Shown here: one piece after another, positions 20,297-45,707 of the stretch
Layout of the letters: each line of letters starts with the position of its first letter
Position numbering within the stretch: position 1 is the stretch's first letter
Origin: Lentimicrobiaceae bacterium
Lineage (GTDB): Bacteria; Bacteroidota; Bacteroidia; Bacteroidales; UBA4417
Assembly (NCBI GenBank): GCA_028697555.1
Contig: JAQVEX010000002.1
Coordinates: 11,677 to 75,676, forward strand
Length of the DNA: 64,000 nucleotides
Direction: 5' to 3'
Program-made: the position numbers and the translations under genes
The notes under the pieces: model-generated
What the model was told of the DNA's origin: nothing
Databases searched by the model: none
Seen by the model: only the letters and a program-made list of their open reading frames with translations

Positions 20297-20340
20297 TTTT
20301 TGTTATATATGATTGATTAAAAATTAATTAAAAATGGGTG

Positions 20341-20348
20341 CAAAGTTA
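20341..20348 (-). promoter_or_regulatory. Bacteroidota -7 promoter box (TAACTTTG) for the EF-G paralog
   Basis: Reverse complement matches TAnnTTTG, about 45 nt upstream of the ATG at 20296. Confidence 0.45.
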
Positions 20349-20514
20349 CAAAATGTATCAATATTTACAATGCTTTATTTTATAAAACTCTAACTTTTGT
20401 TGTTTTTATCATTTTTAAAACCACCGTATAGCCTTAATTTTATTGCGCTTTTAGATGTATATTAATTTTTTAAAAATAAAATAAAAAATTACATCTGTAA
20501 GCAGGTTTTTGTAG

Positions 20515-20522
20515 TACATTTG
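20515..20522 (+). promoter_or_regulatory. Bacteroidota -7 promoter box (TACATTTG) for pfkA
   Basis: TAnnTTTG match 26 nt upstream of the ATG. Confidence 0.45.
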
Positions 20523-20547
20523 TACACATAAAAAATCAGTAATAACA

Positions 20548-21552
20548 ATGAAAATAGGAATATTAACAGCCGGTGGCGATTGTCCCGGAATAAATGCCGC
20601 AATTAGAGGGGTTTGCAAAACGGCAATATCTACATATGGTATGAAAGTGTTGGGTTTTTCTTCGGGTTACCGAGGCTTAATCGAAAAAAACTATCAGGAA
20701 CTTAAAGAAGAGCAACTTTCGGGTATACTTACCTTAGGAGGTACGATATTGGGCACTAGCAGAGATAAACCTTTCCAAAGCGGCTCAAAAGAAAGTGTTA
20801 AGCTTATAAAAAAGAATTACAAAGATTTGGGTTTGAAGGCTCTTGTTGTGATAGGTGGCAATGGCACTCAAAAGACTGCTTCGCAATTAGCCGATGAAGG
20901 CTTAAACATTATAGGTATTCCCAAAACTATTGATAATGATGTTTATGGAACCGATGTTTCTTTTGGCTTCGATTCAGCCGTTATGATTGCTACCGAAGCA
21001 ATTGACAGACTGCATACTACTGCCAACTCGCATAACAGAATTATGGTTATTGAGCTTATGGGACACCATGCAGGTTGGATTTCTTTGTATTCGGGCGTCG
21101 CAGGTGGAGGCGATGTTATTCTTATTCCTGAAATACCTTACGATATTAAAAATATTTCCAAATATCTGAAACAGAGAATTAAAGAAGATAAAAAATATTC
21201 TATAGTTGTTGTCGCCGAAGGAATTGAAAAGCCCGAAGACGAGTACGCAGCATCGTATATATCTAATATGATACAAAAAGAAGTTGGGATTGAAACCCGA
21301 AAAACCATTTTAGGCTATATACAAAGAGGTGGTACTCCTTCGCCTATGGATAGGATATTAGCTACCGAATTCGGCTCTCATACTGCAGACCTTATTGCTC
21401 AGCAAAAATTTGGAGTAATGGTTTGCAAAAACGGCAATAACATTGAGTCTATTCCACTTAGCGAAGTTGGCGGAAAGATAAAACTCGTTTCCCCCGACAA
21501 TCCTTTGATAGAAAAATCTAGAAAAATGGGCATTTGCTTTGGCGATTCATAG
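20548..21552 (+). CDS. pfkA: 6-phosphofructokinase
   Basis: 334 aa with N-terminal GILTAGGDCPGINAAIRG plus the PKTIDND and MGHHAG motifs. Confidence 0.9.
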   Translation: MKIGILTAGGDCPGINAAIRGVCKTAISTYGMKVLGFSSGYRGLIEKNYQELKEEQLSGILTLGGTILGTSRDKPFQSGSKESVKLIKKNYKDLGLKALVVIGGNGTQKTASQLADEGLNIIGIPKTIDNDVYGTDVSFGFDSAVMIATEAIDRLHTTANSHNRIMVIELMGHHAGWISLYSGVAGGGDVILIPEIPYDIKNISKYLKQRIKEDKKYSIVVVAEGIEKPEDEYAASYISNMIQKEVGIETRKTILGYIQRGGTPSPMDRILATEFGSHTADLIAQQKFGVMVCKNGNNIESIPLSEVGGKIKLVSPDNPLIEKSRKMGICFGDS

Positions 21553-21632
21553 TCGATAAAAAGCTGAAAAGTTAAGATTTCCAAATTTACATTCGTAATT
21601 TTTAATTACAATACTTGTTAGTGCGATTTTTG

Positions 21633-21640
21633 TATTTTTG
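21633..21640 (+). promoter_or_regulatory. Bacteroidota -7 promoter box (TATTTTTG) for the suf operon
   Basis: TAnnTTTG match 65 nt upstream of the sufB ATG. Confidence 0.4.
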
Positions 21641-21704
21641 CGAAAAAATTGAACAAACTTGTTTGGTTTTAAACGTTATAGTACGATAATAATAGAAGAA
21701 TAAA

Positions 21705-23153
21705 ATGGACAACGAACCAAATAAAATAATAAAAGATTTTACCAAAAGCGACTATAAATACGGGTTCTACACCGATATTGAAATGGAAACAGCCGAAGTT
21801 GGTCTTAATGAGGATACAATAAGGTTTATTTCGGCAAAGAAAAACGAACCCGAATGGTTGTTGGAATTCAGACTTAAGGCTTACCGAAAATGGCTCACAA
21901 TGGAAATTCCCAATTGGGCTCATTTGGAAATACCCGAAATTGATTTTAACGATATAATTTATTACGCTGCACCAAAAAGGAAACCCGAACTTGAAAGTCT
22001 TGACGAGGTTGACCCCGAACTTATTGAAACCTTTAACAAATTGGGCATTTCTCTTGAAGAACAAAAACGCCTTACAGGCGTTGCTGTCGATGCTGTCATC
22101 GATAGTGTTTCTGTTAAGACCACATTTTCCGAAACATTGAGCAAATATGGAATTATTTTCTGCTCTTTTAGCGAAGCCGTACAAAATCACCCCGAATTAG
22201 TGAAAAGATATATGGGCAGCGTTGTACCGCCCAGCGATAACTTTTTTGCAGCCCTAAATTCGGCTGTATTCAGCGATGGTTCTTTTTGCTACATTCCAAA
22301 GGGTGTGAGATGTCCGGTTGAGCTATCCACATATTTTAGGATTAATGCAGCAAATACCGGTCAGTTTGAGCGTACGCTAATTATCGCTGACGAAGGCTCT
22401 TACGTTAGCTACATGGAAGGCTGTACAGCTCCTATGAGAGACGAAAATCAGCTTCATGCGGCTATTGTCGAAATTATTGCTTTGAAGGATGCCGAAGTCA
22501 AGTACAGCACGGTTCAAAATTGGTACCCGGGCGATAGTGAAGGTAAGGGCGGAATTTACAACTTTGTTACAAAACGTGGTATTTGCAAAGGAAGTCATTC
22601 AAAAATATCGTGGACTCAAGTTGAAACGGGCTCGGCGATTACTTGGAAGTATCCAAGCGTAATTCTTGCAGGCGATAATTCAGTCGGCGAGTTTTATTCG
22701 GTGGCAGTTACAAATAATTATCAGCAAGCCGACACTGGAACAAAAATGATTCATCACGGGAAAAATACCAGCAGCACCATTATTTCAAAAGGTATATCAG
22801 CCGGAAGAAGTAATAACAGCTATCGAGGATTGGTAAGCATAAACAAGCGAGCAGAAAATGCCAGAAACTTTTCGCAATGCGATTCGTTGTTGCTCGGCGA
22901 TAAATGCGGTGCTCATACTTTTCCGTACATAAAAGTCGAAAATACAAGTTCAATAGTTGAACACGAAGCAACTACATCTAAAATATCCGAAGAACAGCTT
23001 TTCTATTGTCAGCAAAGAGGTATTGACATGGAAAATGCAATAGGTCTTATTGTAAACGGCTACGCCAAAGAGATTTTCAAAAAACTTCCTATGGAGTTTG
23101 CTGTTGAGGCACATAAGCTACTTTCAATTTCTTTGGAGGGAAGTGTAGGATAA
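21705..23153 (+). CDS. sufB: Fe-S cluster assembly scaffold SufB
   Basis: 482 aa, conserved SufB along its full length. First gene of the sufBCDS cluster. Confidence 0.95.
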
Positions 23154-23187
23154 TCAAATTAATAATAAATTTCACCAAAATTATAAT

Positions 23188-23937
23188 ATGTTAAGTATCA
23201 GAAATTTAAAAGTATCAGTTCAAGATAAAGTAATATTAAAAGATATAAATTTGGACATAAAACCCGGCGAAGTACACGCTTTGATGGGTCCTAACGGTAC
23301 CGGAAAAAGTACTTTGGCTTACGTACTTGCAGGCAGAGAAGGCTACAAGGTGGAAACCGGTTCAGTCATATACAACGGCAAAGACCTTTTGGAACTTTCT
23401 GTTGAAGAAAGAGCTTGCGAAGGTATTTTCTTAGGATTTCAGTATCCTGTTGAAATACCCGGCGTTTCTATGCTGAATTTTTTGCGTACAGCCATCAACG
23501 AACAACGTAAATATAAAGGAATAGACCCAATTTCTGCAAAGGATTTTATGGCTAAAGTTGAAGAAAAAAAGAAATTGGTAGAAATTACCGAAAAAATGAG
23601 CAATCGTTCGGTAAATGAAGGTTTTTCGGGAGGTGAAAAAAAGAAAAACGAAATTTTCCAAATGGCTATGCTTGAACCTAAATTGGCAATTTTAGACGAA
23701 ACCGACTCGGGACTTGATATAGATGCACTAAGAATTGTCGCCAACGGAGTTAATCAGCTTAAACGACCCGACAATGCGGCTTTGGTCATCACTCACTATC
23801 AACGACTTTTAGAGTACATTATTCCCGATAAAGTGCACATTTTATTCGACGGCAAAATAGTTAAATCCGGTGGAAAAGAACTTGCTCTTGTGTTGGAAGA
23901 GAAAGGGTACGACTGGATTAAAAATGAAACAAATTAA
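23188..23937 (+). CDS. sufC: Fe-S cluster assembly ATPase SufC
   Basis: 249-aa ABC ATPase with Walker A GPNGTGKST and signature FSGGEKK. Confidence 0.95.
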   Translation: MLSIRNLKVSVQDKVILKDINLDIKPGEVHALMGPNGTGKSTLAYVLAGREGYKVETGSVIYNGKDLLELSVEERACEGIFLGFQYPVEIPGVSMLNFLRTAINEQRKYKGIDPISAKDFMAKVEEKKKLVEITEKMSNRSVNEGFSGGEKKKNEIFQMAMLEPKLAILDETDSGLDIDALRIVANGVNQLKRPDNAALVITHYQRLLEYIIPDKVHILFDGKIVKSGGKELALVLEEKGYDWIKNETN

Positions 23938-23958
23938 TACAATTGGAGGTTATTTTTA

Positions 23959-25371
23959 ATGAACGCTACAATTATTAATACTGAATACGATTTGAAAAAC
24001 CGAATTGAGCAGGGTTGGGAGCAAAACAGCGAATTGTTCTTAACGGGTTCAACTCATATCGATGATATGAAAAGAGAGGCAATGGAGGTTTTTCAAAATT
24101 TAGGATTTCCTACAAAAAAATGGGAAAAATGGAGAGAAACCGATTTAAGCATTAGTCTGAGCAAGAAGTATAAATTTTCCCATCAAGAACCTGATAAAAA
24201 CTTCGACCCAAATGAAGTTTTTACCTGCGACGTGCACGGACTTGACCTGCCAAAACTGTTTAAATTCAATGGCTACTTTGTAAGCAACGGTTTTGATATG
24301 CAATTGCCCAAAGGCGTTATTATTTGCAGCTTAAAGCAAGCTTTTGAAAACCACCCGCAACTAATTGCCGATAATTTCAATAAAGCGGAAAATGTTTCCG
24401 ACAGTCCTTTTTACAATCTGAATACGGCTCTTTTTCAAGACGGACTTTTCATCTATATCCCCGACAATATTGACTTTAAACCTACTTTGCAATTAATAGA
24501 TTTGGTTATCGGCAATGAAGGTATGATGATTAATTCCCGAAACCTGATTGTTTTGGGCAAAAACAGCAGTCTATCTATGATATACTGCGAAGAATCGGTG
24601 AATATGCTACCCGGATTTATCAATTCCGTTTCCGAAATTGTTGTCGGCGAAAATAGTACAGTCGATCTTTGTCGTATTTTGAACAAAGATGACGAAACCA
24701 CTGTTGTTAGCTCTATTTACGTAAATCAAAACAGAGACAGCAATTTTACGACTTCTTCGTTTTGTTTTAATGGCGGAACAATTCGCAGCGAAGTGTACAC
24801 CGATTTGAACGGCGAAAATGCCAACACCGATATTTCGGGTTTATATATCATGGGCAAGAGTCATCATATCGACAATCAGGTTGTTGTAAATCACAACAAA
24901 CCACATTGCACGAGCAGCCAGCTATACAAGGGAGTGCTAGACGACCAAGCATCGGGTGTTTTCAACGGATATATATACGTTAAGAAAAACGCATATCAAA
25001 CCAACGGAATGCAAACCAACAGAAATATTTTGCTTTCGGAAAAGGCAAAAATGCACACACGTCCGTTTTTGGAAATTTACAACGATGATGTAAAATGTTC
25101 ACACGGCGCTACAGTAGGGCAGTTAGACCCTATGGCAATGTTTTATTTGAGAACTCGAGGCATAAGTCCCGAAAATGCAAATATTTTACTGCTTTACGCT
25201 TTTGTGGTTGAAGTTGTGAATAAAATAGCCGAACCTATGCTGTTTGCTCAAATTGACGATATGGTTAAAAAGCGCCTCAGAGGCGAGTTGGCAATGTGTA
25301 ACCAATGTGTTTTAAATTGCAGAAAGCACGAAAACGAAAGTAAATTATTACAGTTTTTATCTCAAATGTAG
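23959..25371 (+). CDS. sufD: Fe-S cluster assembly protein SufD
   Basis: 470 aa with a SufB/SufD beta-helix C-terminal region. Sits between sufC and sufS. Confidence 0.88.
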   Translation: MNATIINTEYDLKNRIEQGWEQNSELFLTGSTHIDDMKREAMEVFQNLGFPTKKWEKWRETDLSISLSKKYKFSHQEPDKNFDPNEVFTCDVHGLDLPKLFKFNGYFVSNGFDMQLPKGVIICSLKQAFENHPQLIADNFNKAENVSDSPFYNLNTALFQDGLFIYIPDNIDFKPTLQLIDLVIGNEGMMINSRNLIVLGKNSSLSMIYCEESVNMLPGFINSVSEIVVGENSTVDLCRILNKDDETTVVSSIYVNQNRDSNFTTSSFCFNGGTIRSEVYTDLNGENANTDISGLYIMGKSHHIDNQVVVNHNKPHCTSSQLYKGVLDDQASGVFNGYIYVKKNAYQTNGMQTNRNILLSEKAKMHTRPFLEIYNDDVKCSHGATVGQLDPMAMFYLRTRGISPENANILLLYAFVVEVVNKIAEPMLFAQIDDMVKKRLRGELAMCNQCVLNCRKHENESKLLQFLSQM

Positions 25372-26625
25372 ATGAACGAGCATATAAATAATAAACTTGT
25401 ATCTTATAAAGATAAAATAAAGGCAATTCGCAAGGATTTTCCTATACTTGATATTCGTTTGGATAACAAGCCACTTGTTTATTTCGACAATGCAGCAACA
25501 ACTCAAAAGCCGCAGCAAGTCCTTAACGCAGTTGCCGATTATTACAATACCACCAATTCCAACGTTCATAGAGGTGTGCATAGGCTAAGCAATCAGGCTA
25601 CAACTTTGTTTGAGGAAGCAAGAAAAACAGTCGCCGAGTTTATTAATGCCGGCGAAGCTGAAGAAATTATTTTTACAAGAGGAACAACGGAATCTATAAA
25701 CCTTGTGGCTTGGTCGTTTTGCGAACTTTTTTTGAACCAAGGTGATGAAATAATTGTTTCGGAACTTGACCATCATTCTAATTTTGTGCCATGGCAAATG
25801 GCTTGCAAACGCAAAAAGGCAACTCTGAAATTTATTCCGATATTACCTTCGGGACAATTGGATTTGAACAAATTTGAAGAACTTTTGAGCGAAAAAACCA
25901 AAATAGTTGCCGTTGGTCATGTGTCCAACACTCTCGGCACAATCAACGATATTGAAAGTATTATCGAGTTATCGCATCGCAGAAATATACCCGTTTTTAT
26001 TGACGGAGCTCAAAGTGCACCGCATCTTAAAATTGATGTAAAAAGGTTGGATTGCGATTTCTATGCGTTTTCGGGACACAAAATGTATGCTCCTATGGGT
26101 ATTGGCGTGCTTTACGGCAAAAAAGAAATCTTGCAAAAACTTATCCCTTATCAGTTTGGAGGCGAAATGGTAGAAACAGTCGGCTTTGACGATACTACGT
26201 TTAACCAATTGCCGTACAAGTTTGAAGCAGGCACGCCTAATGTCGGAGGTGCTGTAGGTCTTGAAGCTGCAATCAAATACATCAATTCGATTGATAGAGA
26301 TTTTATTTTCGAATACGAAAATCTGCTAAAAGACTATACAAGCAGGCGTTTAAACCAAATTGAAGACCTTGATTTGCTTGCCAATATTGAGAATAAAGTA
26401 GGTGTTTTTTCTTTCAATGTTAAAAATCAGCATAACTACGATGTTGGCGTACTTTTGGACAACTTCGGCATTTGTGTCAGAACAGGAACGCATTGTACAC
26501 AACCGCTTATGCAAAAACTCAACATATTAGGTACTGTAAGAGCTTCGCTAAGTTTTTATAATACGGTCGAAGAGGTTGATTTCTTTATTGAGTCGTTAAA
26601 AAAAGTCATTTCAATTTTAAAATAA
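25372..26625 (+). CDS. sufS: Cysteine desulfurase SufS (PLP-dependent, class V aminotransferase)
   Basis: 417 aa with SGHKMY (PLP lysine) and the active-site loop RTGTHCTQP. Confidence 0.93.
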   Translation: MNEHINNKLVSYKDKIKAIRKDFPILDIRLDNKPLVYFDNAATTQKPQQVLNAVADYYNTTNSNVHRGVHRLSNQATTLFEEARKTVAEFINAGEAEEIIFTRGTTESINLVAWSFCELFLNQGDEIIVSELDHHSNFVPWQMACKRKKATLKFIPILPSGQLDLNKFEELLSEKTKIVAVGHVSNTLGTINDIESIIELSHRRNIPVFIDGAQSAPHLKIDVKRLDCDFYAFSGHKMYAPMGIGVLYGKKEILQKLIPYQFGGEMVETVGFDDTTFNQLPYKFEAGTPNVGGAVGLEAAIKYINSIDRDFIFEYENLLKDYTSRRLNQIEDLDLLANIENKVGVFSFNVKNQHNYDVGVLLDNFGICVRTGTHCTQPLMQKLNILGTVRASLSFYNTVEEVDFFIESLKKVISILK

Positions 26626-26630
26626 AAACC

Positions 26631-27050
26631 ATGACTATTGAAGATAATATACAGTCGATAAAAGACCAGTTTAGCCAATTTGACGATTGGTTAGATAAAT
26701 ACAATTACCTGATTGAATTAGGGAAAGAGCTTCCTTTGATTGAAACTAAAAACAAAACCGAAGATTATTTGATAAAAGGTTGCCAATCGCGAGTTTGGCT
26801 TTATCCCGAAATAAAAGAAGGTAAACTTTACTTTACCGCAGATTCCGATGCTGTTATAACCAAAGGCTTGGCAGCATTAGTAATTTCGGTATTTTCGGGC
26901 AATCCGCCTGCCGAAATATTTAATGCTCCTACGGATTTTATTAACGAGATTGGTTTAACCGAGCATTTGTCGCCTACGCGTAGCAACGGATTAGTCTCAA
27001 TGCTTAAGCAAATAAAATTATATGCTTTTGCGTTCCAATCGAAAATTTAA
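26631..27050 (+). CDS. sufE: Sulfur acceptor protein SufE
   Basis: 139 aa, SufE family, with the GCQS active-site Cys context. Confidence 0.85.
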   Translation: MTIEDNIQSIKDQFSQFDDWLDKYNYLIELGKELPLIETKNKTEDYLIKGCQSRVWLYPEIKEGKLYFTADSDAVITKGLAALVISVFSGNPPAEIFNAPTDFINEIGLTEHLSPTRSNGLVSMLKQIKLYAFAFQSKI

Positions 27051-27061
27051 CAAGAGTAAAA

Positions 27062-27385
27062 ATGCAAAACGATACCGAAAAAAAAGATTTATACAATAAA
27101 ATAGTATTAACTGTAAAAACCGTTTACGACCCCGAAATGCCTGTTGATATCTGGGAGTTGGGATTGATTTACAAAATTGAAATCAAAGACGATTTTACTG
27201 TTGATATAAAAATGACTTTAACTTCGCCAAATTGTCCCGTAGCTGAGAGTTTACCTGCTGAGGTTTACGAAAAAGTTAAAATGATTGACGGAGTAAAAGA
27301 TGTAAATATTACATTGGTGTTCGAACCATCGTGGAATCAAGATATGATAAGCGATGAAGGACTTTTGGAGTTGGGTTTGCTTTAG
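27062..27385 (+). CDS. sufT: SUF-associated DUF59 (MIP18/SufT-like) Fe-S assembly protein
   Basis: 107 aa with the motifs VYDPE.P..I.ELGL and TLTSPNCP. Confidence 0.8.
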   Translation: MQNDTEKKDLYNKIVLTVKTVYDPEMPVDIWELGLIYKIEIKDDFTVDIKMTLTSPNCPVAESLPAEVYEKVKMIDGVKDVNITLVFEPSWNQDMISDEGLLELGLL

Positions 27386-27386
27386 A
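27336..27386 (+). repeat. Direct repeat copy A (3' end of sufT including its stop codon)
   Basis: 46/51 identical to 28477-28527, aligned base by base. Confidence 0.9.
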
Positions 27387-27399
27387 CTAACCCTACAAA

Positions 27400-28293
27400 T
27401 TAAATCACCACTATTTTTTTAACAACAAATTGGTTGTTTTTTAGCGTAACCCGCACAAACAGAACACCTTTTGCTTTAATATTGTCAATTGTGGCAAAGT
27501 CTCCATTAATATCAGTTTTTGAGCATATTTGTTTACCATTCATATCAAAAACATCAACTCTTTTAATGTCCGCACTTGTGTTTATTCTGATATGACCGGT
27601 GCTTGGGTTAGGCGAAATATCAATTTTATTTACCGTTTGTTCCGACAACCCCATATAGTCCATCGTAGAGGGTTCAAAGATGTAATATGGCTTATTGAAA
27701 ATATCGTAATGCACTCTTATATATCCTGTAGTTACAACCGAGTCGAATAAATGATAAAATTTGCCACCAACAGGAATACTATCGTATCCTTCTCCTATAA
27801 AACCAAACCAATAATCATTAATGGTCAAAACATAATAGGTTTCGTCAGCCAACAACTGCCACACCATTCCTGGTAGAACAGGATACGTAGTACCGGGATT
27901 ACCCGAAGGAACTATCACTCCTTCTAAGGTAACATTTTCGGGAGGTGGTGCAAGTTTTTCTATACTTGTTAATTCTATTTCGTAGTAATCTTCGGATTGG
28001 CAATCTTGCTTAACGCTTATTGTACCAATAGCTTTAACACTGTCGTTAATTAAGTAGGTAGTGCCAAAATATTCCAAACCGGCATGTTCGCCATTAATAG
28101 TAGTTATATAGTTTATGTTATTGTAACGTACGGCATAAACCAGATTGTGAAGTGTAGGTATGCTTTCAGGTGGACATGGTCGTGTAGTTATTTTGCCGTA
28201 TATAGTGTCGTAATTTTGCGAATGTAAGCCACCAGTAAAAAACAAAACTACAAACACTAGCAGTATTAATTGTTTTTTGTTATTGTAAATCAT
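27400..28293 (-). CDS. Secreted protein with a T9SS type-A C-terminal sorting domain; function unknown
   Basis: 297 aa with a signal peptide. The C-terminal roughly 75 aa (ISPNPSTGHIRI...GVLFVRVTL...KKIVVI) fit the Por secretion-tail pattern. Confidence 0.65.
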   Translation of the reverse strand: MIYNNKKQLILLVFVVLFFTGGLHSQNYDTIYGKITTRPCPPESIPTLHNLVYAVRYNNINYITTINGEHAGLEYFGTTYLINDSVKAIGTISVKQDCQSEDYYEIELTSIEKLAPPPENVTLEGVIVPSGNPGTTYPVLPGMVWQLLADETYYVLTINDYWFGFIGEGYDSIPVGGKFYHLFDSVVTTGYIRVHYDIFNKPYYIFEPSTMDYMGLSEQTVNKIDISPNPSTGHIRINTSADIKRVDVFDMNGKQICSKTDINGDFATIDNIKAKGVLFVRVTLKNNQFVVKKIVVI

Positions 28294-28367
28294 AATGTTT
28301 AATTTTTAAGGTTATTAATTCTATTATTGTAAATACAATTTGTTAGAACAATGAAACTGAATGACTT

Positions 28368-28375
28368 CAAAATTA
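28368..28375 (-). promoter_or_regulatory. Possible -7 promoter box (TAATTTTG) for the T9SS cargo gene
   Basis: Reverse complement matches TAnnTTTG, 75 nt upstream of the ATG at 28293. Confidence 0.3.
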
Positions 28376-28406
28376 AAAAATATTTACAAATAATTATTAA
28401 AAAAAT

Positions 28407-28414
28407 CCCCCCCC
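28407..28414. repeat. Homopolymeric C8 tract (G8 on the strand of the downstream cargo gene)
   Basis: Read directly from the sequence. Unusual in an AT-rich intergenic region. Lies 114 bp upstream of the start at 28293. Confidence 0.9.
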
Positions 28415-28476
28415 ATAAATTAACAAAAATTAACAAAAAATGCTGTGCTTTTACGCAGGTTAGTTATCAACATAGT

Positions 28477-28527
28477 ATCAAGATATGATAAGCGATGAAT
28501 GACCTTTGGAGTTAGATTTGCTTTAAA
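28477..28527 (+). repeat. Direct repeat copy B (decayed duplicate of the sufT 3' end)
   Basis: 46/51 identical to 27336-27386. Would read ..QDMISDE-stop. Confidence 0.9.
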
Positions 28528-28644
28528 AACAGTTTTTTCTTCTTTGCAAAGCCCACTAATTATTTATCAGGCTCTCAATCCCTTATAAAATAAGGGGAAA
28601 ATAAAAAATATGCAAAAAAGCTTGACTTCGGCTTCAAATTGTAT

Positions 28645-28652
28645 TACCTTTG
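28645..28652 (+). promoter_or_regulatory. Bacteroidota -7 promoter box (TACCTTTG) for queA
   Basis: TAnnTTTG match 33 nt upstream of the ATG. Confidence 0.45.
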
Positions 28653-28684
28653 CACACTTCTTTTAAAAAATAAAAAACTAATAT

Positions 28685-29740
28685 ATGAAACTTTCGCAAT
28701 TTCGTTACCATTTACCAACAGAACTTATAGCAAAATATCCTACAACCCACCGCGACGACTCAAGACTTATGGTCGTTGATAGAGCAACCAAAACCATAGA
28801 ACACAAGTTGTTCAAAGACATTATAAACTACTTCGACGAAGGAGATTGCTTGATAATGAACAATACCAAAGTGTTTCCGGCGTTGCTTGTAGGCGAAAAG
28901 GAAAAAACTGGAGCTCAAATTACTGTGTTTTTACTTCGTGAGTTGAAAAGAGAAAGCCGTTTGTGGGACGTACTCGTCGATCCTGCTCGCAAAATCAGAA
29001 TAGGAAATAAATTGTTTTTTGGCGAAAACGATGTGCTGATGGCTGAGGTAATTGATAATACTACATCCAGAGGCAGAATCCTACGTTTTTTATTTGATGG
29101 AACCGACGAGGAATTTAAAAGCTTGATAGACAGCTTGGGCAGAACACCTTTGCCAATCGAGTTGCAAAGACTCAGAGACATTGAAGATGAAGATAAAGAA
29201 CGCTACCAAACACTGATTGCAAAACACGAAGGAGCTGTTGCTGCTCCATACGCCGGACTGCATTTTAGTCGTGAATTATTAAAACGTTTTGAGATAAAAG
29301 GTGTTGATGTTGCCGAAATTACTCTTCATTCGGGCTTAGGAAATTTCCGACCAATTGATGTTGAAGATTTGACAAAGTTTAAAATGGACTCGGAAGAGCT
29401 GATTATTGAACAAGACACTTGCGATACCGTAAACAAGGCAATTGAAAACGGTAAAAAGGTTTGTGTTGTTGGCGTTACATCACTAAAAGCTGTAGAATCA
29501 TCGCATACGATAGACGGCTTTTTGAAACCCGGACATCAGTGGACGAATAAATTTATATTTCCACCTTACGATATTACCGTACCTACAACAATGGTAACTA
29601 ACTTCCATTTGCCACAATCAATAATGATGATGACTACCAGTGCTTTTGCGGGCTATAATTTACTAATGACTGCATACAAAGAAGCCGTTCAGCAGAAATA
29701 CAGATTTTTTGCCTACGGCGATGCAATGCTTATTTTGTAA
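28685..29740 (+). CDS. queA: S-adenosylmethionine:tRNA ribosyltransferase-isomerase
   Basis: 351 aa with N-terminal MKLSQF.Y.LP.ELIA..P. Conserved QueA along its full length. Confidence 0.93.
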
Positions 29741-29746
29741 TATCTA

Positions 29747-30412
29747 ATGGAATTATATACCGCAATTGTATTAGCTTCGGGCGATGGCACAAGGTTTGGC
29801 GATAAACCCAAGCAGTTTGCAATGTTTATAGATAAACCATTGTTGCTGCATTCTATCGATGTGTTTTTGTCAGATGAAAATTGCGATAAAGTAGTTTTAG
29901 CCTTATCGGAAAAATTATTACCCCTTTGGAAAGAAATAGTAGCTAAAAATCCTGAATATTCCGCAGTAAATGTAACAATAGGCGGCGACACCCGATTTAT
30001 GTCGGTAAAAAACTCCATAGCTCTTGATATTAACACCGAGTACATTGCAGTGCACGATGCGGCTCGTCCTATAATCACAAAACCATGGCTTAAAGATATT
30101 TTTTCGCATGCAGTAAAAAACAAATCGGCTGTGCCGGTTGTTGATTTGGTTTATTCGATTAGAGCCGTAAAAAACAATACTTCGGAAGCTGTAAACAGAA
30201 GCGATTACAAAATAGTACAAACTCCGCAGTTTTTTCAGACAAGTATTTTAAAAAAGGCTTACCAACAACCATATACCGAAAAGTTCACCGACGATGCATC
30301 GGTAGTTGAAAATGCAGGATATTCGGTATCGCTTTGCGAAGGACTGAATAGGAATATAAAAATTACGTATCCGTATGATATTGAAGTTGCTAAAGCAATT
30401 AGTGAGTGGTGA
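29747..30412 (+). CDS. ispD: 2-C-methyl-D-erythritol 4-phosphate cytidylyltransferase
   Basis: 221 aa with A.GxGxRFG and VHDAARP motifs. The last three codons and the stop codon lie inside heptamer array E3. Confidence 0.88.
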   Translation: MELYTAIVLASGDGTRFGDKPKQFAMFIDKPLLLHSIDVFLSDENCDKVVLALSEKLLPLWKEIVAKNPEYSAVNVTIGGDTRFMSVKNSIALDINTEYIAVHDAARPIITKPWLKDIFSHAVKNKSAVPVVDLVYSIRAVKNNTSEAVNRSDYKIVQTPQFFQTSILKKAYQQPYTEKFTDDASVVENAGYSVSLCEGLNRNIKITYPYDIEVAKAISEW

Positions 30413-30555
30413 GTGGTGAGTGGTGAGTGGTGCGACATTTTCGGTCATTGAGTGCCGATGTTGAGCGAAGCGAAATATCGGTGTATCGAAATGCCGAAAA
30501 TGGAGAGTAAGATGAGGTTGCGGGTTACGAGTTACGGGTTTCGAGTATCCGCGAA
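30402..30555. repeat. Heptamer/core mosaic element E3
   Basis: GTGAGTG x4 plus GTGCGAC at 30402-30436. Structured core at 30437-30506 with the inverted repeat CATTTTCGG/CCGAAAATG. Seven in-phase 7-mers at 30507-30555 (GTAAGAT GAGGTTG CGGGTTA CGAGTTA CGGGTTT CGAGTAT CCGCGAA). Confidence 0.9.
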
Positions 30556-30793
30556 TTTGTTATCTTATTCAATATTTCTATAACACATACTTTGTAAAAG
30601 ATTAGGCAATGTTGTTTAAAAAAGCAGCATTAATTCATCATAAACAGAGAGTTGAAAAACAGAATACTTTATTCATTAGTGAAATAAAATATAAAAACTT
30701 TTCTATAATAAAATGCATATTTGTTATTTATGGTGTGCTTTTTGTGCAAAAAAAGTTAAGTGAATTATATATTAACAAAAAAATAGAATAGGT

Positions 30794-31492
30794 ATGAAAA
30801 AATTGGTTTTATTAACAACGATTATTGCGTTACTTTTTACAGGTTGTAAAAAGGATAACGGCACGGAACAGCAAAATACTAAATGTGATTTTGTAGGTTT
30901 TATGTATTATTATGGTGAGCAATATGATTTAGGAGAAATGCAGAATGATTATATTTTGCTTGGTATTGACAGAAAATACAGCGACGAGCAAATTAGAAGT
31001 TTTATTTCAACTGTGAAGCAATTTGACCAGAACTACGAGTATATAATCTACGACCAACAGCATTTCGATGCCAAAGAAATTCCTATAAAGCTTAGGACTG
31101 CTCAAACTTGCGAACAAATTACCCAACTAATTTCCTACTTGAAACGAAACCCGATAATATTGTATGCTCATTATACTATGAAGACAGACGATTGTACAAA
31201 CATGATTTTTGAGAAGATGGGAGATTTATGTGTAAATAGCTACACAAACAATTTTTATGTTTCAGTGTTTGACGAAAACGATTTAACTGCTTTAAACCAA
31301 ACAATTGAAGAAACAAATACTGAATTGGTAAGACAAAATGGTTCTAGACTTACCCTGTTTACTGTAAGAGCTACCAAAAACTCTAAAGGAGATGCTTTAA
31401 AAATGGCAAACTATTTTCAAGAAACAGGTCTATTTGAATATGCCTACCCTCAAAGTGTCAAATATCCTGTTGAATTTGAAATAGAAAAATAA
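30794..31492 (+). CDS. Hypothetical lipoprotein
   Basis: 232 aa with a lipobox (LLFTGC). No family recognised. Confidence 0.5.
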   Translation: MKKLVLLTTIIALLFTGCKKDNGTEQQNTKCDFVGFMYYYGEQYDLGEMQNDYILLGIDRKYSDEQIRSFISTVKQFDQNYEYIIYDQQHFDAKEIPIKLRTAQTCEQITQLISYLKRNPIILYAHYTMKTDDCTNMIFEKMGDLCVNSYTNNFYVSVFDENDLTALNQTIEETNTELVRQNGSRLTLFTVRATKNSKGDALKMANYFQETGLFEYAYPQSVKYPVEFEIEK

Positions 31493-31520
31493 GTGCTAAA
31501 AATCTTGCCAAAATACTTTT

Positions 31521-32711
31521 ATGAAATTTTTGCAAGCCGATATTATTTTCCCTGTCTCGTCGGAACCAATTACCAATAGCGTTTTGGTAATTGATGATAG
31601 GAACGTTGTTGTAGATATTGTTAGTGCCGACAAAATCGGTTTGCGTGATGATGTAATTTATTACAAAGGGGCGCTTTGTCCGGGTTTTGTTAATACGCAT
31701 TGTCATTCGGAACTAAGTTGGGCTAAGGGTTTAATTCCTGCCAAAACCGGATTGGATTCTTTTATTAAAAATTTGGAAAAGGCTAAGACTGAAATTAGTA
31801 ACAGTACGAAAATTGAAAAAATATCGTCGGAATTAGATTTGGCATACAAAAGCGGAACCGTTGCTATGATTGATATTTGCAATACCGACATAAGCATTTC
31901 TCCAAAATTAAAAAGTAATATTTTGTTTTACAATCTTATTGAGTTGTACGGTTCTGAAAGTGAGCATGCTGATAAAATTTTCGCCGAAGGACTTAGTTTG
32001 AAAAACAAATTCCAATCGAACCAATTAATTTCTGAAATTACCGCTCACGCACCTTATTCGGTGTCGTTGGAGTTGATGCAAAAAATTAGCGATAACAATA
32101 AATCTCTGCAAAGTATTCATCTGTTGGAAAACGACGACGAAAACGAACTTTTTATAAAAGGAACGGGAACAATCGTAGAAAGGCGAAAGTATTTCAATCC
32201 GAATTACGCAGGTTGCGATGCTACCGGAAAACGTTCTTTACAAAGCGTATCCGGCAATATGAGCAGAGATGTAAGCACATTGTTTGTCCACAATACTGTG
32301 GCTTTGGAAGAAGATATTGACTTTGCACTTCAAAATTTCAGCGATTTGTATTGGGCGTTTTGTCCGAATTCAAATTTGCACATAGAAAATAAGCTTCCCA
32401 ACGTTCCATTATTCGTCGACAAAAATACCAAAAACACTATTGGTACCGATAGTTTGGCTTCTAATACGGAACTAAATATGCTATCGGAAATTATGACCTT
32501 TATGAATAATTTTCCGCAGTTGAAATTTAATCAACTATTACGTTGGGCAACCTTAAACGGAGCGGAGTTGATAAAATTTGACAAGATGTTAGGTAGTATC
32601 GAAGTTGGGAAAGCTCCCGGAATTGTAAATATTCCGAATTTTGATGTTGAAAAAGGAGTTCCGACGAACAGCAAGTGCAGTTTGGTATGTGCCGCTAATA
32701 GCTATTTGTAA
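31521..32711 (+). CDS. Amidohydrolase-superfamily metal-dependent hydrolase (chlorohydrolase/deaminase-like)
   Basis: 396 aa with the HxH metal motif (VNTHCHSELS) and a later conserved H and D (HNT, GTDS). Confidence 0.6.
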   Translation: MKFLQADIIFPVSSEPITNSVLVIDDRNVVVDIVSADKIGLRDDVIYYKGALCPGFVNTHCHSELSWAKGLIPAKTGLDSFIKNLEKAKTEISNSTKIEKISSELDLAYKSGTVAMIDICNTDISISPKLKSNILFYNLIELYGSESEHADKIFAEGLSLKNKFQSNQLISEITAHAPYSVSLELMQKISDNNKSLQSIHLLENDDENELFIKGTGTIVERRKYFNPNYAGCDATGKRSLQSVSGNMSRDVSTLFVHNTVALEEDIDFALQNFSDLYWAFCPNSNLHIENKLPNVPLFVDKNTKNTIGTDSLASNTELNMLSEIMTFMNNFPQLKFNQLLRWATLNGAELIKFDKMLGSIEVGKAPGIVNIPNFDVEKGVPTNSKCSLVCAANSYL

Positions 32712-32716
32712 TTTAA

Positions 32717-35692
32717 TTAGTCGCCTATAGATAGCTGAATATCGGAAATTTCCACTTTGCCACCTTCGGAAAAAATAATTATCCAATTATTGTCTTCGCG
32801 TTGCCATTTGGTCTGGGCGCTAACTCCGATAAGGTATTCGCTATATTCGCCCGGTTTAATATCTCTAATAACAAAACCGCCGTTTTTAATGCCGTCTTTA
32901 CCGTAATTTATAAAAATGTTTGGGTTGCTGTTATCGGCTGCCTTTGCCTTAATTATGAGATAGTTGTTTTTGCGAAGTCGGAATTCTACAACATTGAAAT
33001 CAAATTTATGTTCATCTCCAACATTAACAACAATATTCTGATTAGCAATGTTAATAATTGCGTGGTCGGCTAAGTATTTTCTAATCTTTGCAATTTGATT
33101 TTGCGGATACTTGTCGGTAGGTACAATCAATATTGCACTTTCGTAAGCTTCTATTGCTTGGTCGTAAATTTTGTTTTTGTACAAATTGTCGGCTTTGGCA
33201 ATGGCTGCGTTAAACTCTTCCGAACGTTGAGCTTTAATTTTTTCTAACAATGTATTTATTTTCGAAATTTGCTGATTAGGATAGCTTTCCGATGGCTTGA
33301 CTTCCAAAGCTTTATTATAATAGTTTATGGCTTCGTCATAATCTTCTATCTGCATAAGCCCGTCGGCTGTGCTGATGAGTGCATTGTACTTATTGTTAAT
33401 TTCGTCGATGATAGCCTGTTTTTTAGCTTTTATGTCGTTTATTTGTTTTTTCGGATATTCTTCTTTTGGTTTAAGTTCGGAGGCTGACTCGTATTTTTCA
33501 ATAGCTAGGTCGTAGTCTTTGTTTTCAAAAGCCAAATCGCCGGCTTCTATAAACAAATTGTAATTTTTATCAATATCGGCGATGATGGTATTGATTTCTT
33601 CGATTCTATCGCTTGCAAACTTATCTTTAGGCTTGTATTCTAATGCTTTGTTGTATGCAGCAATAGCTTGCGAGTACTGCTTTTGTTCAAACAAAGAGTT
33701 AGCTTCCGAAATATTCTGATTGTAAGCCTTGTTTTTAGCTTCAATATCGCTTAATATTTTTTCGGTTTCAGAAATTCTACCAATAACATATTCATCGTTG
33801 CTGTTAAGTTTGTTCAGGTTTTTGTAGCCGGTTAGAGCTTCGCTATACATTTTGTTTTCAAAATTTTTATCAGCTTCGGATAGAATGCTGTTATATTCTT
33901 TCTCTCTATTTTCTATATCCTTAATAATTTGGTTTATTTCGGCAATTTTACTATTAGGGTAAGTTTCGTCAGGCTTGATAGTTAGCGCTCTGTAGTAGGG
34001 TTCTAATGCTTCGTGATATTTTTCATTGTTGAAAAAATTGTCAGCCAAACTGATAGCTTCGTTGTACAGTCTGTCGTTTTCTGCGTTTTTATTAATAATT
34101 GCTTGTAGTGTCGAGATTTTTTCTTTTGGATAAGTTTCGTCGGGCTTTATCTTCAAAGCTTCTTTGTACGAACTAATAGCATCTTCAAGTTTGTTGCTTT
34201 CGGCAAAACCATCAGCGCTGGCAATTAATGAGTTGTATCGCTGAATGGCATCTTTTTGTTCGGTTATTAGTTTTTCGGCTTCAGCAATTTGTTGTTTAGG
34301 ATAGGTTTCGCCTTGCTTAATTGCCAATGCGTCTTTATATGCTACAATACTGTTTTCGTACAATTTTTTATTAAACAGCGAGTCGGCTTTATCTATGGCT
34401 GCAATGTATTTTAATTCCGTTTCCGCTTTTTGAGCCATAAAATCTTTTATTTCGGCTATGCGCTGAGCATGTAGTTTTTCCGAAGGTTTTATTTTGATGG
34501 CAGTAGAATATTCGGCTAAGGCTTCTTCCCATTTTTGTTTTAAGTAAAAATCGTCGGCTTTTTCAATAATTCTATTGTAATTTTCTTCAATATGTCTAGC
34601 TTCGGCAAATATTTCTTCTATTTCCGAAATTTTAATTTTAGGATATTTTTCATCGGGTTTGATTTCAGATGCTGATTTATAGCTTGTAATAGCGTTTTGA
34701 TAATCTTTCAAATCAAAGAATTTGTCGGCACTTGCGATAAAAGAAAAATATTTTTCATCAATACTTTTCTGTTCTGCTACCGCCTGATTAGCTTTTTCCA
34801 ACATCTCTTTCGGGTATACGGCATCAGGGTTAAGGTAAATGGCTTCTTTGTAAAGTAGGGCAGAGGCTTCAAAAAGTTTATTCACGTACAAACTATCGGC
34901 ATCTTTAATTGCCTTATCGTAGTTGGCTTGTATGTTTATCCTTTTGTTGATAATGTCTTCGGTTTCGGATAATTTTTGTAAAACTTCGGCATTATCGGGA
35001 AACATCTTCAACACAGCTTTATATTTATATAGAGCCAGTTCAAATTCGTTTTTTTCAAAAAGTCTGTCGCCTGCAGCCATCAAATCGTTTACTCTAACTT
35101 CATTATCTTCAACTTCATTTAGCTTAAAAATTGCATCTTCAATTATTGATTTTACGTTTCTATCGCCTGGTCTAACAATGTACGCCTTTTCGTATTCGGC
35201 AATTGCCAACTTGTATTTTTTTTCTTTCATAAGCTGGTCGCCGGAGTTAATAGCGTTCAAATAATATTGTTTATGGATTGGATTGGTATAAACTCTACCA
35301 ATAGATGTAAGCCTGTCTTTTATAAACTGAGATTCGTGATTTAGTGAAAGAGCTTGTAAAAACAGAGTTTGAGCCTGTTCGTAATAGCCGTCTAAGTAAT
35401 ATTCTTCTCCTTTTATTACAATGTTTTCAAATATGCTGTTTTTAATGTTAGGATCCTTTTCAAAAATTTCATCAACTTTGTATTTCATTTTTATTGCTTC
35501 AATAGACTCCTGATCCATTTTCAAAGCAGTTTCAAAACAATAATTTGCTTTTGCGTAATCCTTATCATTAAATGCTGCATTGCCTTGTTGCATCAGTGTA
35601 TGAAAATCAAAAGATGAATTTTCTTGTGCTAAGACAAAAGTGTTTATTAATAGCGTTGCTGTCAGTAGGCAGAATCGTTTTAAAAACTTCAT
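32717..35692 (-). CDS. Large secreted TPR-repeat protein with about 12 tandem units of roughly 57 aa and a beta-rich C-terminal domain
   Basis: 991 aa with a signal peptide. Recurrent unit: Y...I..AD..F....Y..AI..Y..AL.IKPDE.YPK..I. Confidence 0.7.
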   Translation of the reverse strand: MKFLKRFCLLTATLLINTFVLAQENSSFDFHTLMQQGNAAFNDKDYAKANYCFETALKMDQESIEAIKMKYKVDEIFEKDPNIKNSIFENIVIKGEEYYLDGYYEQAQTLFLQALSLNHESQFIKDRLTSIGRVYTNPIHKQYYLNAINSGDQLMKEKKYKLAIAEYEKAYIVRPGDRNVKSIIEDAIFKLNEVEDNEVRVNDLMAAGDRLFEKNEFELALYKYKAVLKMFPDNAEVLQKLSETEDIINKRINIQANYDKAIKDADSLYVNKLFEASALLYKEAIYLNPDAVYPKEMLEKANQAVAEQKSIDEKYFSFIASADKFFDLKDYQNAITSYKSASEIKPDEKYPKIKISEIEEIFAEARHIEENYNRIIEKADDFYLKQKWEEALAEYSTAIKIKPSEKLHAQRIAEIKDFMAQKAETELKYIAAIDKADSLFNKKLYENSIVAYKDALAIKQGETYPKQQIAEAEKLITEQKDAIQRYNSLIASADGFAESNKLEDAISSYKEALKIKPDETYPKEKISTLQAIINKNAENDRLYNEAISLADNFFNNEKYHEALEPYYRALTIKPDETYPNSKIAEINQIIKDIENREKEYNSILSEADKNFENKMYSEALTGYKNLNKLNSNDEYVIGRISETEKILSDIEAKNKAYNQNISEANSLFEQKQYSQAIAAYNKALEYKPKDKFASDRIEEINTIIADIDKNYNLFIEAGDLAFENKDYDLAIEKYESASELKPKEEYPKKQINDIKAKKQAIIDEINNKYNALISTADGLMQIEDYDEAINYYNKALEVKPSESYPNQQISKINTLLEKIKAQRSEEFNAAIAKADNLYKNKIYDQAIEAYESAILIVPTDKYPQNQIAKIRKYLADHAIINIANQNIVVNVGDEHKFDFNVVEFRLRKNNYLIIKAKAADNSNPNIFINYGKDGIKNGGFVIRDIKPGEYSEYLIGVSAQTKWQREDNNWIIIFSEGGKVEISDIQLSIGD

Positions 35693-35876
35693 TTGTAAAT
35701 ATTTTTGTGCAAAAATTTTAGTTTAAGTTGTTATAAATTACATGTATAACGTAAAAAAGTTAATATTATTTGCAAATTTTATACCAATCGACAAATTATC
35801 AATAAGATTTACCGTAAAATAATACAATAAATGTCGCAAATCCATAACTAATTAAGGGTTTTGAGCTAATAATCGA

Positions 35877-36551
35877 TTAAACAAAAACTCCGTCTTTCAT
35901 TACAAGAGTTCTGGAACTGATATTGCTTAAATCTTTGTTATGAGTTACTATTAAAAAGGTTTGTTTTAGCTCATCTCTGAGGTTCAAAAACAGGTTGTGC
36001 AATTCTAAAGCATTTTTTGAGTCCAAGTTTCCCGAAGGTTCGTCAGCCATAATAATTGCAGGCTTGTTAACTAGAGCTCTGGCAACTGCGACACGCTGCT
36101 GTTCGCCACCCGAAAGTTCCGAAGGCTTGTGCTCGCTTCTATCCGACAGGTTTAGCATGTTTAATAAATCGCGTGCTTGGTTTTTGGCTTCTTTTAAGGA
36201 TAATCCCTTTATAAGAGCAGGCATTGCAACGTTTTCAAGTGCGGTAAATTCGGGTAATAGGTGATGAAACTGAAAAACGAAACCTATCTTGGCGTTTCTA
36301 AATTCCGATAGCTTGTTGCCACTAAGTTTGTGGACTTCAACACCATCGACAAAAACTTCTCCTTTAGTAGGCTTGTCCAACGAACTAAGTATTTGCAACA
36401 GAGTCGTTTTGCCGGCTCCCGAAGCTCCCATAATAGTAACTATTTCTCCTGCTTGAATTTCAATATCAATGCCTTTCAGGACTTCTAAAGAGCCGTATTG
36501 CTTGTATATGCCTTTACCTTTTATCATATGTTTTTTTACAAAAGTATGCAA
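35877..36551 (-). CDS. lolD: ABC transporter ATP-binding protein, LolD/MacB-type
   Basis: Walker A GASGAGKTT, signature LSGGEQQRVA, Walker B IIMADEP. The true start may be the internal Met at 36527. Confidence 0.6.
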   Translation of the reverse strand: MHTFVKKHMIKGKGIYKQYGSLEVLKGIDIEIQAGEIVTIMGASGAGKTTLLQILSSLDKPTKGEVFVDGVEVHKLSGNKLSEFRNAKIGFVFQFHHLLPEFTALENVAMPALIKGLSLKEAKNQARDLLNMLNLSDRSEHKPSELSGGEQQRVAVARALVNKPAIIMADEPSGNLDSKNALELHNLFLNLRDELKQTFLIVTHNKDLSNISSRTLVMKDGVFV

Positions 36552-36626
36552 TTATTTACAAATCGTTATTAATGAGTTTGCGTTGATAATATTTTTTTGA
36601 TAGTGTTTTTATAATTAAATTTATTA

Positions 36627-36634
36627 TAGATTTG
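36627..36634 (+). promoter_or_regulatory. Possible -7 promoter box (TAGATTTG) upstream of sucC
   Basis: TAnnTTTG match, but 156 nt upstream of the ATG. Confidence 0.3.
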
Positions 36635-36789
36635 CAAAAAATATATCTTGTTGTGGTGTTAGAATAGATATAAATTTAAAAAAATACTTAATGGCTATTT
36701 TAAACAAACAACAGTGGTAAGTACAATTGTTATATTGAAATACGTATAGTTGTTGGCATTATTAATCATTTTAAAAATATAAATCGCAA

Positions 36790-44283: not shown

Positions 44284-44483
44284 TGTTTCGGGTTGCGTGG
44301 TGCGTGGTGCGGGTTTCGGGGTGCGGGTTACGGGTTATCCCGAAGTTTCGGGAGTCACTGAGTGCCGAAAGCGTATCGAAGTGCCGAAAATGGAGAACGC
44401 TTTGGACTTCGGCTCTTCGACAAGTTTAGTAACCGAAGTCTATCACCCACCACTCATCACTCATCACCATTCACCCAACACTA
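44281..44483. repeat. Heptamer/palindrome mosaic element E4, filling the whole ispF-porV convergent gap
   Basis: Eight G-rich 7-mers at 44284-44339 and the palindrome TCCCGAAGTTTCGGGA at 44338-44353. A core shared with E3 at 44355-44396 and the hairpin GACTTCGG/CCGAAGTC at 44405-44440. Six C-rich 7-mers at 44441-44482. Both termini read TAGTGTT as an inverted repeat. Confidence 0.9.
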
Positions 44484-45635: not shown

Positions 45636-45699
45636 TATGTTTTTTTTGTTATAGTTTTTAATAATTTATTTGCAAATAATTGTTTATCGGATAACGGTG

Positions 45700-45707
45700 C
45701 AAAAGTA
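45700..45707 (-). promoter_or_regulatory. Bacteroidota -7 promoter box (TACTTTTG) for porV
   Basis: Reverse complement matches TAnnTTTG, 65 nt upstream of the ATG at 45635. Confidence 0.45.

Follow-up and report, generated by a model that had tools for sequence, protein, structure and literature searches.

How did the 3′ end of a housekeeping gene come to stand on both sides of an accessory gene for a secreted protein? This question is raised by a 64,000-nt stretch of DNA (hereafter the window) from a Lentimicrobiaceae bacterium of the Bacteroidota (GenBank assembly GCA_028697555.1, contig JAQVEX010000002.1, positions 11,677 to 75,676), in which the end of sufT, whose product serves iron-sulfur cluster assembly, occurs twice in direct orientation and the two copies enclose a single gene for a cargo protein of the type IX secretion system (T9SS). 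The original prediction, drawn from the window alone, was that foreign DNA had entered at the end of sufT by site-specific integration, and that the insert is either a minimal cassette or the remnant of an island. Our analysis makes it probable that the region is a decayed, integrase-less genomic islet that was integrated at the extreme 3′ end of sufT in a Campbell-type manner.

The duplication is found where it had been described. Copy 1, which is attL-like (27336–27386, + strand), comprises the functional final 16 codons of sufT and the stop codon TAG (27383–27385), and copy 2, which is attR-like (28477–28527, + strand), is a displaced, non-coding sufT end. The two are identical at 46/51 positions, with mismatches at repeat positions 24, 28, 38, 40 and 50 and a full match over the first 23 nt; a repeat search of the window returns a longer pairing of 58 nt (27327–27384 vs. 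28468–28525, 86% identity). A match of at least 46/51 anywhere within 64 kb has a chance expectation of ~7e-10, and the 64-kb window holds no third copy. Copy 2 is decayed, as had been claimed: in the sufT frame it reads Y-Q-D-M-I-S-D-E-stop. It contains a premature TGA, a native-type TTA codon and a native-type TAA stop, has an in-frame TAG shortly upstream, and lies in no open reading frame (ORF). Between the copies are 1090 nt (27387–28476) with one credible gene, the 297-aa ORF on the opposite strand (27400–28293), whose product carries a T9SS C-terminal domain (CTD) as originally read.

Across the contigs compared, the 51-mer is present twice where the site is occupied and once where it is empty. 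Elsewhere in the window and in the 113 fetched loci, only chance matches to it are seen, and it is not a dispersed repeat. The junction between sufT and the cargo gene recurs in Logan assemblies of three further runs, one of these assemblies spanning the whole arrangement with both repeats; therefore, the arrangement is not an assembly artefact. A Logan contig of a further run (L113:1-45) has its start exactly within the repeat (ATGATAAGCG...); its copy is undecayed, and queA comes next. This break may reflect co-occurring GAT/GAA strain variants or a mix of occupied and empty sites in the sample.

An insertion at this position leads one to expect relatives with an uninterrupted junction, and these were found. 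A scan of species-representative genomes with SufT yielded one close relative (L005, 94% SufT identity), and members of the cluster of the window's QueA added eleven contigs from JGI, NCBI and Logan, which represent three further lineages (L098-type, L099-type and L107-type). The empty site is thus seen in 12 contigs of four lineages (loci L005 and L098–L108). In all four, an intact sufT with the single copy of the 51-mer is followed by a 158-bp spacer and queA, without a scar, and in 12/12 empty sites sufT ends in TTA-GGT-TTG-CTT-TAA. The occupied site is also represented by four lineages, namely: the window; L109/L110; L111/L112/L087; and L085. Over sufS-sufT, identity is 94–96% among the three occupied lineages whose flanks are sequenced and 93.5–95.6% among the four empty ones; each set forms a group of its own, and between the two groups identity is 92–93%. 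Among 79 outgroup Bacteroidota sufT loci (SufT ≤64% identity), neither queA nor the cargo gene is ever found within 6 kb and no sufT end is duplicated; therefore, the event is lineage-specific and sufT is no general hot spot. These outgroup loci were rejected as a test of polarity, as the direction of gain or loss is not inferable from them.

A comparison of positions ~19500–37500 with L098, L099, L107 and L005 shows that the pattern of divergence shifts at the insertion site. Upstream, in the suf operon, the window is 92–95% identical to the empty clade, which is 94–97% identical internally. Downstream, the window falls to 85–91% against the empty clade, with 97–100% identity inside that clade, and the synonymous divergence (dS) is 0.27 for sufS and 0.5 for queA. 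A recombination-block boundary thus appears to coincide with the sufT/queA junction. The queA genes of L099 and L098 are 99.7% identical, yet the sufT-queA spacers differ clearly (TAATAACACTC... in L099/L102 vs. TAAGAACCC... in L098), and the spacer that flanks the L085 island is of the L099 type. This suggests that the junction haplotype moves between lineages by recombination.

What was inserted is best seen in the L085 contig. Its 4160 bp start in the equivalent of copy 2 and end in the equivalent of copy 1, and so span a whole island of 4.1 kb; copy 2 reads ATCAAGAAATGATAAGCGATGAAGGCCCTTTGGAACTAGGTTTGCTTTAA and is followed by queA-proximal sequence, and the side of copy 1 reads ...TTTAG-ACTAACCCTACAAA. 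Between these repeats there are only two genes, both on one strand, which encode a 923/937-aa protein with a T9SS C-terminal domain and a homologue of the 297-aa protein (85% identical for the gene). The family of the 937-aa protein has Peptidase_C25 members and includes a protein of Porphyromonas gingivalis that its source names C25 family cysteine peptidase (31% identity over the full length).

By blastn, L085:3198-4160 corresponds to window positions 28316–27355 (86.6% identity) and L085:12-125 to 28531–28417 (79%), and in place of L085:126-3197, in which the peptidase gene lies, the window has ~100 bp without a significant match. The region directly upstream of the 297-aa gene (28294–28330, − strand) is homologous to the final codons of the peptidase gene and the intergenic spacer (L085:3177-3221). 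It is followed by the scar of the deletion (28331–28416), ~90–100 bp of AT-rich sequence, including a C8 tract, where L085 has ~3.05 kb with the whole 937-aa gene. A remnant of the peptidase's signal peptide in 28331–28416 was considered and dropped, the alignment being not significant (p = 0.12). The L111 lineage has the same peptidase deletion as the window. The insert of the window is a shrunken remnant of a 4-kb two-gene island that has lost ~3 kb, including the peptidase gene.

The MAG (metagenome-assembled genome) to which the window belongs has a second module of this kind on another contig, which pairs a 939/981-aa C25-like protein with a 306-aa protein (MDD3739062.1 and MDD3739063.1; loci L096, L097 and L086). 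This distant paralogous pair, with 54% and 43% identity to the island pair, keeps the two-gene order. It lies at an unrelated locus, and no sufT-like ends are found around it. The single-gene state of the window is derived, because the two-gene order is kept both in the distant paralogues and in L085. Hence, of the two options first offered for the insert, that of a remnant island holds, and that of a minimal cassette misleads: the gene normally travels with a gene for a C25-like peptidase.

Neither form of the island brings a mobility gene. The island genes and all window ORFs of at least 130 aa were scanned with Pfam and show no integrase, recombinase or transposase, in line with what had been said of the insert, and the gene lists of the empty sites name no mobility genes. 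The proposal of site-specific integration therefore stands in part. Insertion with attL/attR-like ends and the matching empty sites are present; an integrase, an attP-bearing element and a circular form were not found.

The sequence of events that would best account for these data starts with a circular DNA that carried the gene for the 937-aa C25-like peptidase, the gene for the 297-aa protein with two OB-like domains, and a sufT-end copy of ~51 nt. A single Campbell-type crossover between this circle and the chromosomal sufT end would have left sufT intact with a hybrid end, copy 1, which now finishes with the island-derived TAG followed by ACTAACCC. Copy 2 would then be the end with the native TAA and the queA-proximal flank, no longer translated and drifting as a pseudogene. 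Later, an internal deletion of ~3 kb in the window's clade would have removed the peptidase gene and left one selected cargo gene. Any further movement would require a recombinase in trans, as with the cis-mobilizable elements discussed below, or host homologous recombination across the 51-nt repeats. We infer the circular intermediate, the single crossover and its place in the last ~10 nt of sufT, and likewise the identity of the recombination machinery. Within this account, the participation of a dedicated recombinase, acting in trans or since lost, is quite possible if slightly short of an even chance.

The position of the crossover is suggested by three features of the repeats. First, the island-side end of sufT is TAG followed by ACTAACCC in the window, L109/L110 and L085, three of the four occupied lineages, whereas all empty sites and all copy 2 sequences have TAA; the island therefore brought with it the stop codon's third base, at the least, and whatever lies to the right of that base. 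Second, the right flank of L085, TAATAACACTCATATTTCT, is the haplotype of the empty L099 genomes, and when copy 2 of L085 is compared with the L099 sufT end, 5/5 differences fall at repeat positions 8–36 and 0 in the next 33 nt (probability ~0.04). Third, a CTT to CCT change is common to copy 2 of the window and of L085 and is absent from every functional sufT. These points fit a possible reading in which the incoming DNA supplied the left ~40 nt of copy 2 and the crossover took place in the last ~9–13 nt of sufT (TTTGCTTTA; candidate segment 27376–27384, + strand, placed by where the copies differ). If the left part of copy 2 is indeed island-derived, TTTGCTTTA would be the sole stretch that fits one fixed crossover in both the window and L085. 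It is also possible that the crossover lay at the left edge of the repeat and that the displaced native end decayed afterwards.

The divergence of copy 2 bears on the number of integrations. Between the window and L085, copy 2 differs at 6/50 sites (12%). The proportion of differing synonymous sites in the cargo gene is 0.366 (binomial P ~1e-4 against copy 2), and in the adjacent non-coding DNA of the island 18/65 sites differ (28%; Fisher P = 0.03 against copy 2). Copy 2 thus seems to have been freed from selection later than the island variants began to diverge, which speaks for islands that had diverged beforehand and were then integrated separately at one and the same point. Between the window and L111, copy 2 shows 6/50 differences at a cargo dS of 0.12, which indicates that within the occupied clade it evolves as neutral, pseudogene-like DNA. 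This test of copy 2 divergence replaced an argument from raw identity (86% for the cargo gene vs. 92–93% for the flanks), which we withdrew as proof of independent acquisition on finding that queA dS is equally high.

The L111 lineage differs at the left end of the island. Here sufT terminates in TAA, and the spacer between this stop codon and the cargo gene measures 131 nt instead of 13 (L111:1102-1232, L112:1130-1260 and L087:1199-1247). The 131-nt spacer holds a perfect 11-bp hairpin (GGCATACGTCT / AGACGTATGCC) and what looks like a third, heavily decayed sufT-end copy (GAATTAAGATATAATACG...), with a gapped alignment that is beaten by 0.2% of shuffles. Such a copy may be the trace of a second event at the same site. 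A mobile miniature element was also considered for this spacer and was rejected, as no other copy of it occurs in any sequence searched.

Several points weigh against the account by a Campbell-type crossover. The chromosomal background of L085 is known from 19 nt only, and the statistics on the crossover position rest on 5–6 substitutions. In L111, a GAT to GAC change is common to copies 1 and 2; this points to gene conversion between the two, a process that could explain the slow divergence of copy 2. At 0.50, the window and L085 are as far apart in cargo dS as the occupied and the empty clade are in queA dS (0.47–0.55). When the core 21-mer MAAGAWATGATAAGCGAYGAA was used as a probe for a free attP, the 1 viral and 7 JGI metagenome matches were all chance matches with unrelated flanks and none was an attP; the whole L085 island has no blastn match in plasmid or phage collections; and no recombinase, attP-bearing element or circular junction turned up in the viral, plasmid, phage and JGI metagenome collections. 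Finally, the GC content of the insert (0.36–0.38 in the gene) is similar to that of the flanks, so the comparison of GC content suggested in the original prediction reveals no difference, and an anomaly of composition was rejected.

Some of these results are what one ancient insertion would leave behind. In that case the island, having entered once, by any mechanism, the ancestor shared by all these lineages, would have been inherited vertically with no later movement, and empty sites would stem from recombination between the repeats or from flanking homologous recombination that put an empty allele in place of the occupied one. The agreement between cargo and queA dS is in its favour, and since the three flank-sequenced occupied lineages form one clade and the four empty lineages another, one change on one branch explains most of the distribution. 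The junction between the island and copy 2 coincides in the window and L085, and frequent recombination around the locus, together with gene conversion between the repeats, is indicated as well. Against this, the divergence of copy 2 (12%) is far below that of the synonymous sites (37%) or of the island's non-coding DNA (28%). In addition, 12/12 empty sites are scar-free, end in TAA and carry no copy 2 substitutions, so that excisions would have had their crossovers confined to the last 9–13 nt, and the right flank of L085 is the L099 haplotype of the empty clade. We consider a single old insertion unlikely, although a serious competitor.

The same limited likelihood attaches to host homologous recombination acting by itself throughout, without a dedicated recombinase. 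Here, a circle or fragment with a captured sufT end would have come from a donor in which the cargo pair lay beside sufT and would have entered by way of the 51-nt homology, and later spread would have used the longer homology of the suf operon and queA. Such a scheme agrees with the lack of a recombinase gene in either island version or in the window. It also agrees with the near-native state of the island-borne sufT end, which differs only at the third base of the stop codon and so points to capture from a close relative not long ago, as opposed to a dedicated attP of old standing. Moreover, the stop codon is precisely where the homology ceases, as would follow from a difference between donor and recipient downstream of sufT, and the change in divergence pattern at the junction shows recombination tracts that end there. 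However, for a non-replicating circle to integrate through RecA, 51 nt is short, and the inferred crossover lies in a 9–13-nt block in both lineages instead of the longer, favoured 17–23-nt identical block. The probable third decayed copy in L111 suggests, too, that events were repeated at one fixed point.

A repeat that is itself functional or dispersed (a terminator, small RNA or regulatory box), or an artefact of assembly or binning, is effectively excluded: apart from a sub-threshold match to the Rfam gut-2 RNA over copy 1 (18.3 bits vs. 39.8), everything speaks against it, namely the two copies in occupied and one in empty contigs with only chance matches elsewhere, the free decay of copy 2 (a premature stop and 6/50 differences between sister lineages), the lack of a second copy in 79 outgroup sufT loci, and the recurrence of the arrangement in independent assemblies of several runs. 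The match in question (RF02990, window 27324–27378, gathering score 39.8, E = 0.56) is probably a chance one.

Returning to integration by a Campbell-type crossover, a stronger version of it can be formulated. The 4.1-kb island would be a self-contained, recombinase-less cassette for secreted proteins that moves repeatedly among Lentimicrobiaceae via one fixed ~10-nt site in the sufT end, alters nothing but the stop codon's third base (TAA to TAG), and is driven by an unlinked, trans-acting recombinase, with successive events leaving decayed sufT-end copies as in L111. We regard this as a speculative and rather improbable extension.

The gene that remains in the window (27400–28293, − strand) encodes a T9SS cargo protein with a predicted signal peptide, two OB-like β-barrel domains and a type-A C-terminal sorting domain. 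The hydrophobic N-terminal helix covers residues 5–19, the OB-like domains, of ~90 aa each, cover residues ~28–113 and ~119–215, and the sorting domain (residues 222–297) is encoded by 27403–27630 (− strand). Residues 226–296 match Pfam Por_Secre_tail (PF18962) with 33 bits against a cutoff of 27. The ~90-aa domain occurs singly in relatives of ~200 aa. In the AlphaFold model (pLDDT 82.5), the two β-barrels give weak matches to OB folds of the SSB-like type, and with Foldseek the modelled CTD superposes on the substrate CTDs in the SprA translocon (8gl8_D and 8gl6_D; TM 0.85–0.87, rmsd 1.3–1.5). The two marks of a T9SS cargo are thus both present, namely the CTD, and a signal peptide together with T9SS genes in the same genome. 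These genes lie in the window itself, at 44481–54390, and comprise porV, two PorU-like C25 genes and porP.

The ratio of nonsynonymous to synonymous divergence (dN/dS) of the 297-aa gene is 0.24 against L111 and 0.17 against L085. Because of these values, the gene is judged to be kept under purifying selection despite the loss of its peptidase neighbour. From the conserved gene pairing alone, one may guess that the 297-aa protein is a partner or regulator of the C25-like peptidase. In the T9SS region of the window, two large tandem Peptidase_C25 (PorU-like) genes (45734–49552 and 49561–52959, − strand) are located directly upstream of porV (44481–45635), with a GldK-like FGE-sulfatase gene and porP close by. 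A duplicated PorU is unusual.

How does this locus compare with known elements? Integrative and mobilizable elements (IMEs) and islands target the 3′ ends of rpsI, rpmG, rplL, guaA and trmE, and encode a tyrosine or serine integrase that adjoins the att site (PMC5704250, Table 1). The sufT islet shares with them the 3′ end of a conserved single-copy gene, duplication of that end as a direct repeat, empty relatives and accessory cargo. It differs in lacking an integrase and in a 51-nt repeat that reaches ~40 nt upstream of the inferred crossover. No report that treats sufT together with the terms ‘integration site’ or ‘genomic island’ was found among the top literature matches listed.

Cis-mobilizable elements (CIMEs) were defined for Streptococcus as remnants left by IMEs or by integrative and conjugative elements (ICEs) that retain att sites and lack integration and transfer genes (PMC5704250). 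The islet likewise has attL/attR-like repeats, an intact target gene and a small, decayed insert; both island versions hold cargo only (one gene in the 1.09-kb form and two in the 4.1-kb form); and the possible extra repeat copy in the L111 lineage recalls accretion tandems. In contrast to CIMEs, there is no known parental ICE or IME whose integrase and att site match, the full 4.1-kb form is already without a mobility gene, and the host is an uncultured Bacteroidota lineage. On this comparison of sequences, the islet resembles a CIME in anatomy. We do not claim membership, and the decay that is seen is the internal deletion of the peptidase gene. As for excision or mobilization in cis by the recombinase of an incoming element, the sole hint is the probable third, decayed repeat copy of L111.

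The ssrA-specific islands of Dehalococcoides target the tmRNA gene, have a 20-bp repeat, and carry a module with a CcrB-like serine recombinase in 16/31 islands (PMC3146451). They, too, are strain-variable islands between the target gene and its 3′-end repeat, with a diagnostic base that marks the functional end; about half of them are without an integration module, and tandem repeat arrays occur. No variant of the sufT island has a recombinase, however, and there is one island per sufT site. An integron cassette is also a small, promoter-proximal, single-gene mobile unit without a recombinase of its own, but the repeats of the islet are the host gene's end at the core suf-queA junction. The cargo gene, moreover, has its own upstream region and opposes the neighbouring operon, and the unit is the deletion product of a two-gene island. 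As the window has no intI, integron integrase or other tyrosine recombinase, an integron cassette was rejected. So was a transposon or insertion sequence: there is no transposase, the duplication is 51 nt long, and the only terminal inverted match is the 7–8-nt ACTAACC/GGTTAGT, which is missing in L085 and was taken as chance.

Accessory DNA between duplicated gene ends, relatives with an empty site, and remnants without an integrase are already well known, and the locus is a clear but fairly ordinary example of the integration of DNA at the end of a housekeeping gene. What is new is the target sufT, which joins the housekeeping genes whose 3′ ends receive foreign DNA, along with the very small full form, the T9SS cargo module and the host lineage. 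In this uncultured Bacteroidota lineage of anaerobic digesters, presence and absence at a core-gene junction form a clean polymorphism, with the empty site, the two-gene island and the deletion remnant all visible, and the case presents T9SS cargo, a gingipain-family peptidase and its partner protein, as something exchanged in a small module. If it is true that the element moves without its own recombinase, this would point to a trans-acting integration system in Bacteroidota that goes unnoticed by annotation pipelines. Otherwise, a familiar process is well resolved at this site, which provides a strain marker and a caution that duplicated gene ends reveal integrase-less islets.

The remaining features of the locus are as follows. 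The proteins of the window are those of the NCBI Lentimicrobiaceae MAG. On the left, sufT (27062–27385, + strand; 107 aa; FeS_assembly_P/DUF59, Pfam PF01883, 65 bits; MDD3737762.1, iron-sulfur cluster assembly protein) is the last gene of the sufBCDSE-T cluster and intact as the target, with sufB, sufC, sufD, sufS and sufE in front of it. On the right, queA (28685–29740, + strand; Pfam PF02547, 405 bits; MDD3737764.1) is followed by ispD, so that Pfam confirms the core flanks that had been proposed for both sides. The native sufT-queA intergenic region (28528–28684, + strand) is collinear with the empty-site genomes, as aligned to L005, and the empty form of the junction in the haplotype of the window's clade would be sufT ... 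TTTAA-AAACAGTTTTTTC. The left end of the island is the 13-nt spacer CTAACCCTACAAA (27387–27399) between the stop codon of sufT and that of the convergent cargo gene; it is identical in L085 and L109, and L111/L112/L087 have the 131-nt spacer instead. The right end (28417–28476) is homologous to L085:68-125, includes the conserved block AAATTAACAAAAATTAACAAAA, and terminates in ...CAACATAGT or ...GACTATA.

Promoter and terminator scans give counts no higher than in shuffled sequence. The C8 tract that had been noted in the insert is found at 28407–28414, ~115 nt upstream of the start of the cargo gene. Its length varies by assembly (8 nt in the window and L001, 9 in L111 and 10 in L087), which could be slipped-strand variation or homopolymer sequencing error. 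Lastly, a family of G-rich intergenic repeats, in which GTGAGTG or GGGTTGCG-like units stand in tandem ahead of a TGAGTGCCGA motif, occurs in the window at 30395–30560, 44283–44396 and 53109–53139. Within the same MAG it is also present at L096:4060-4183, on the downstream side of the paralogous pair of peptidase and 306-aa genes.

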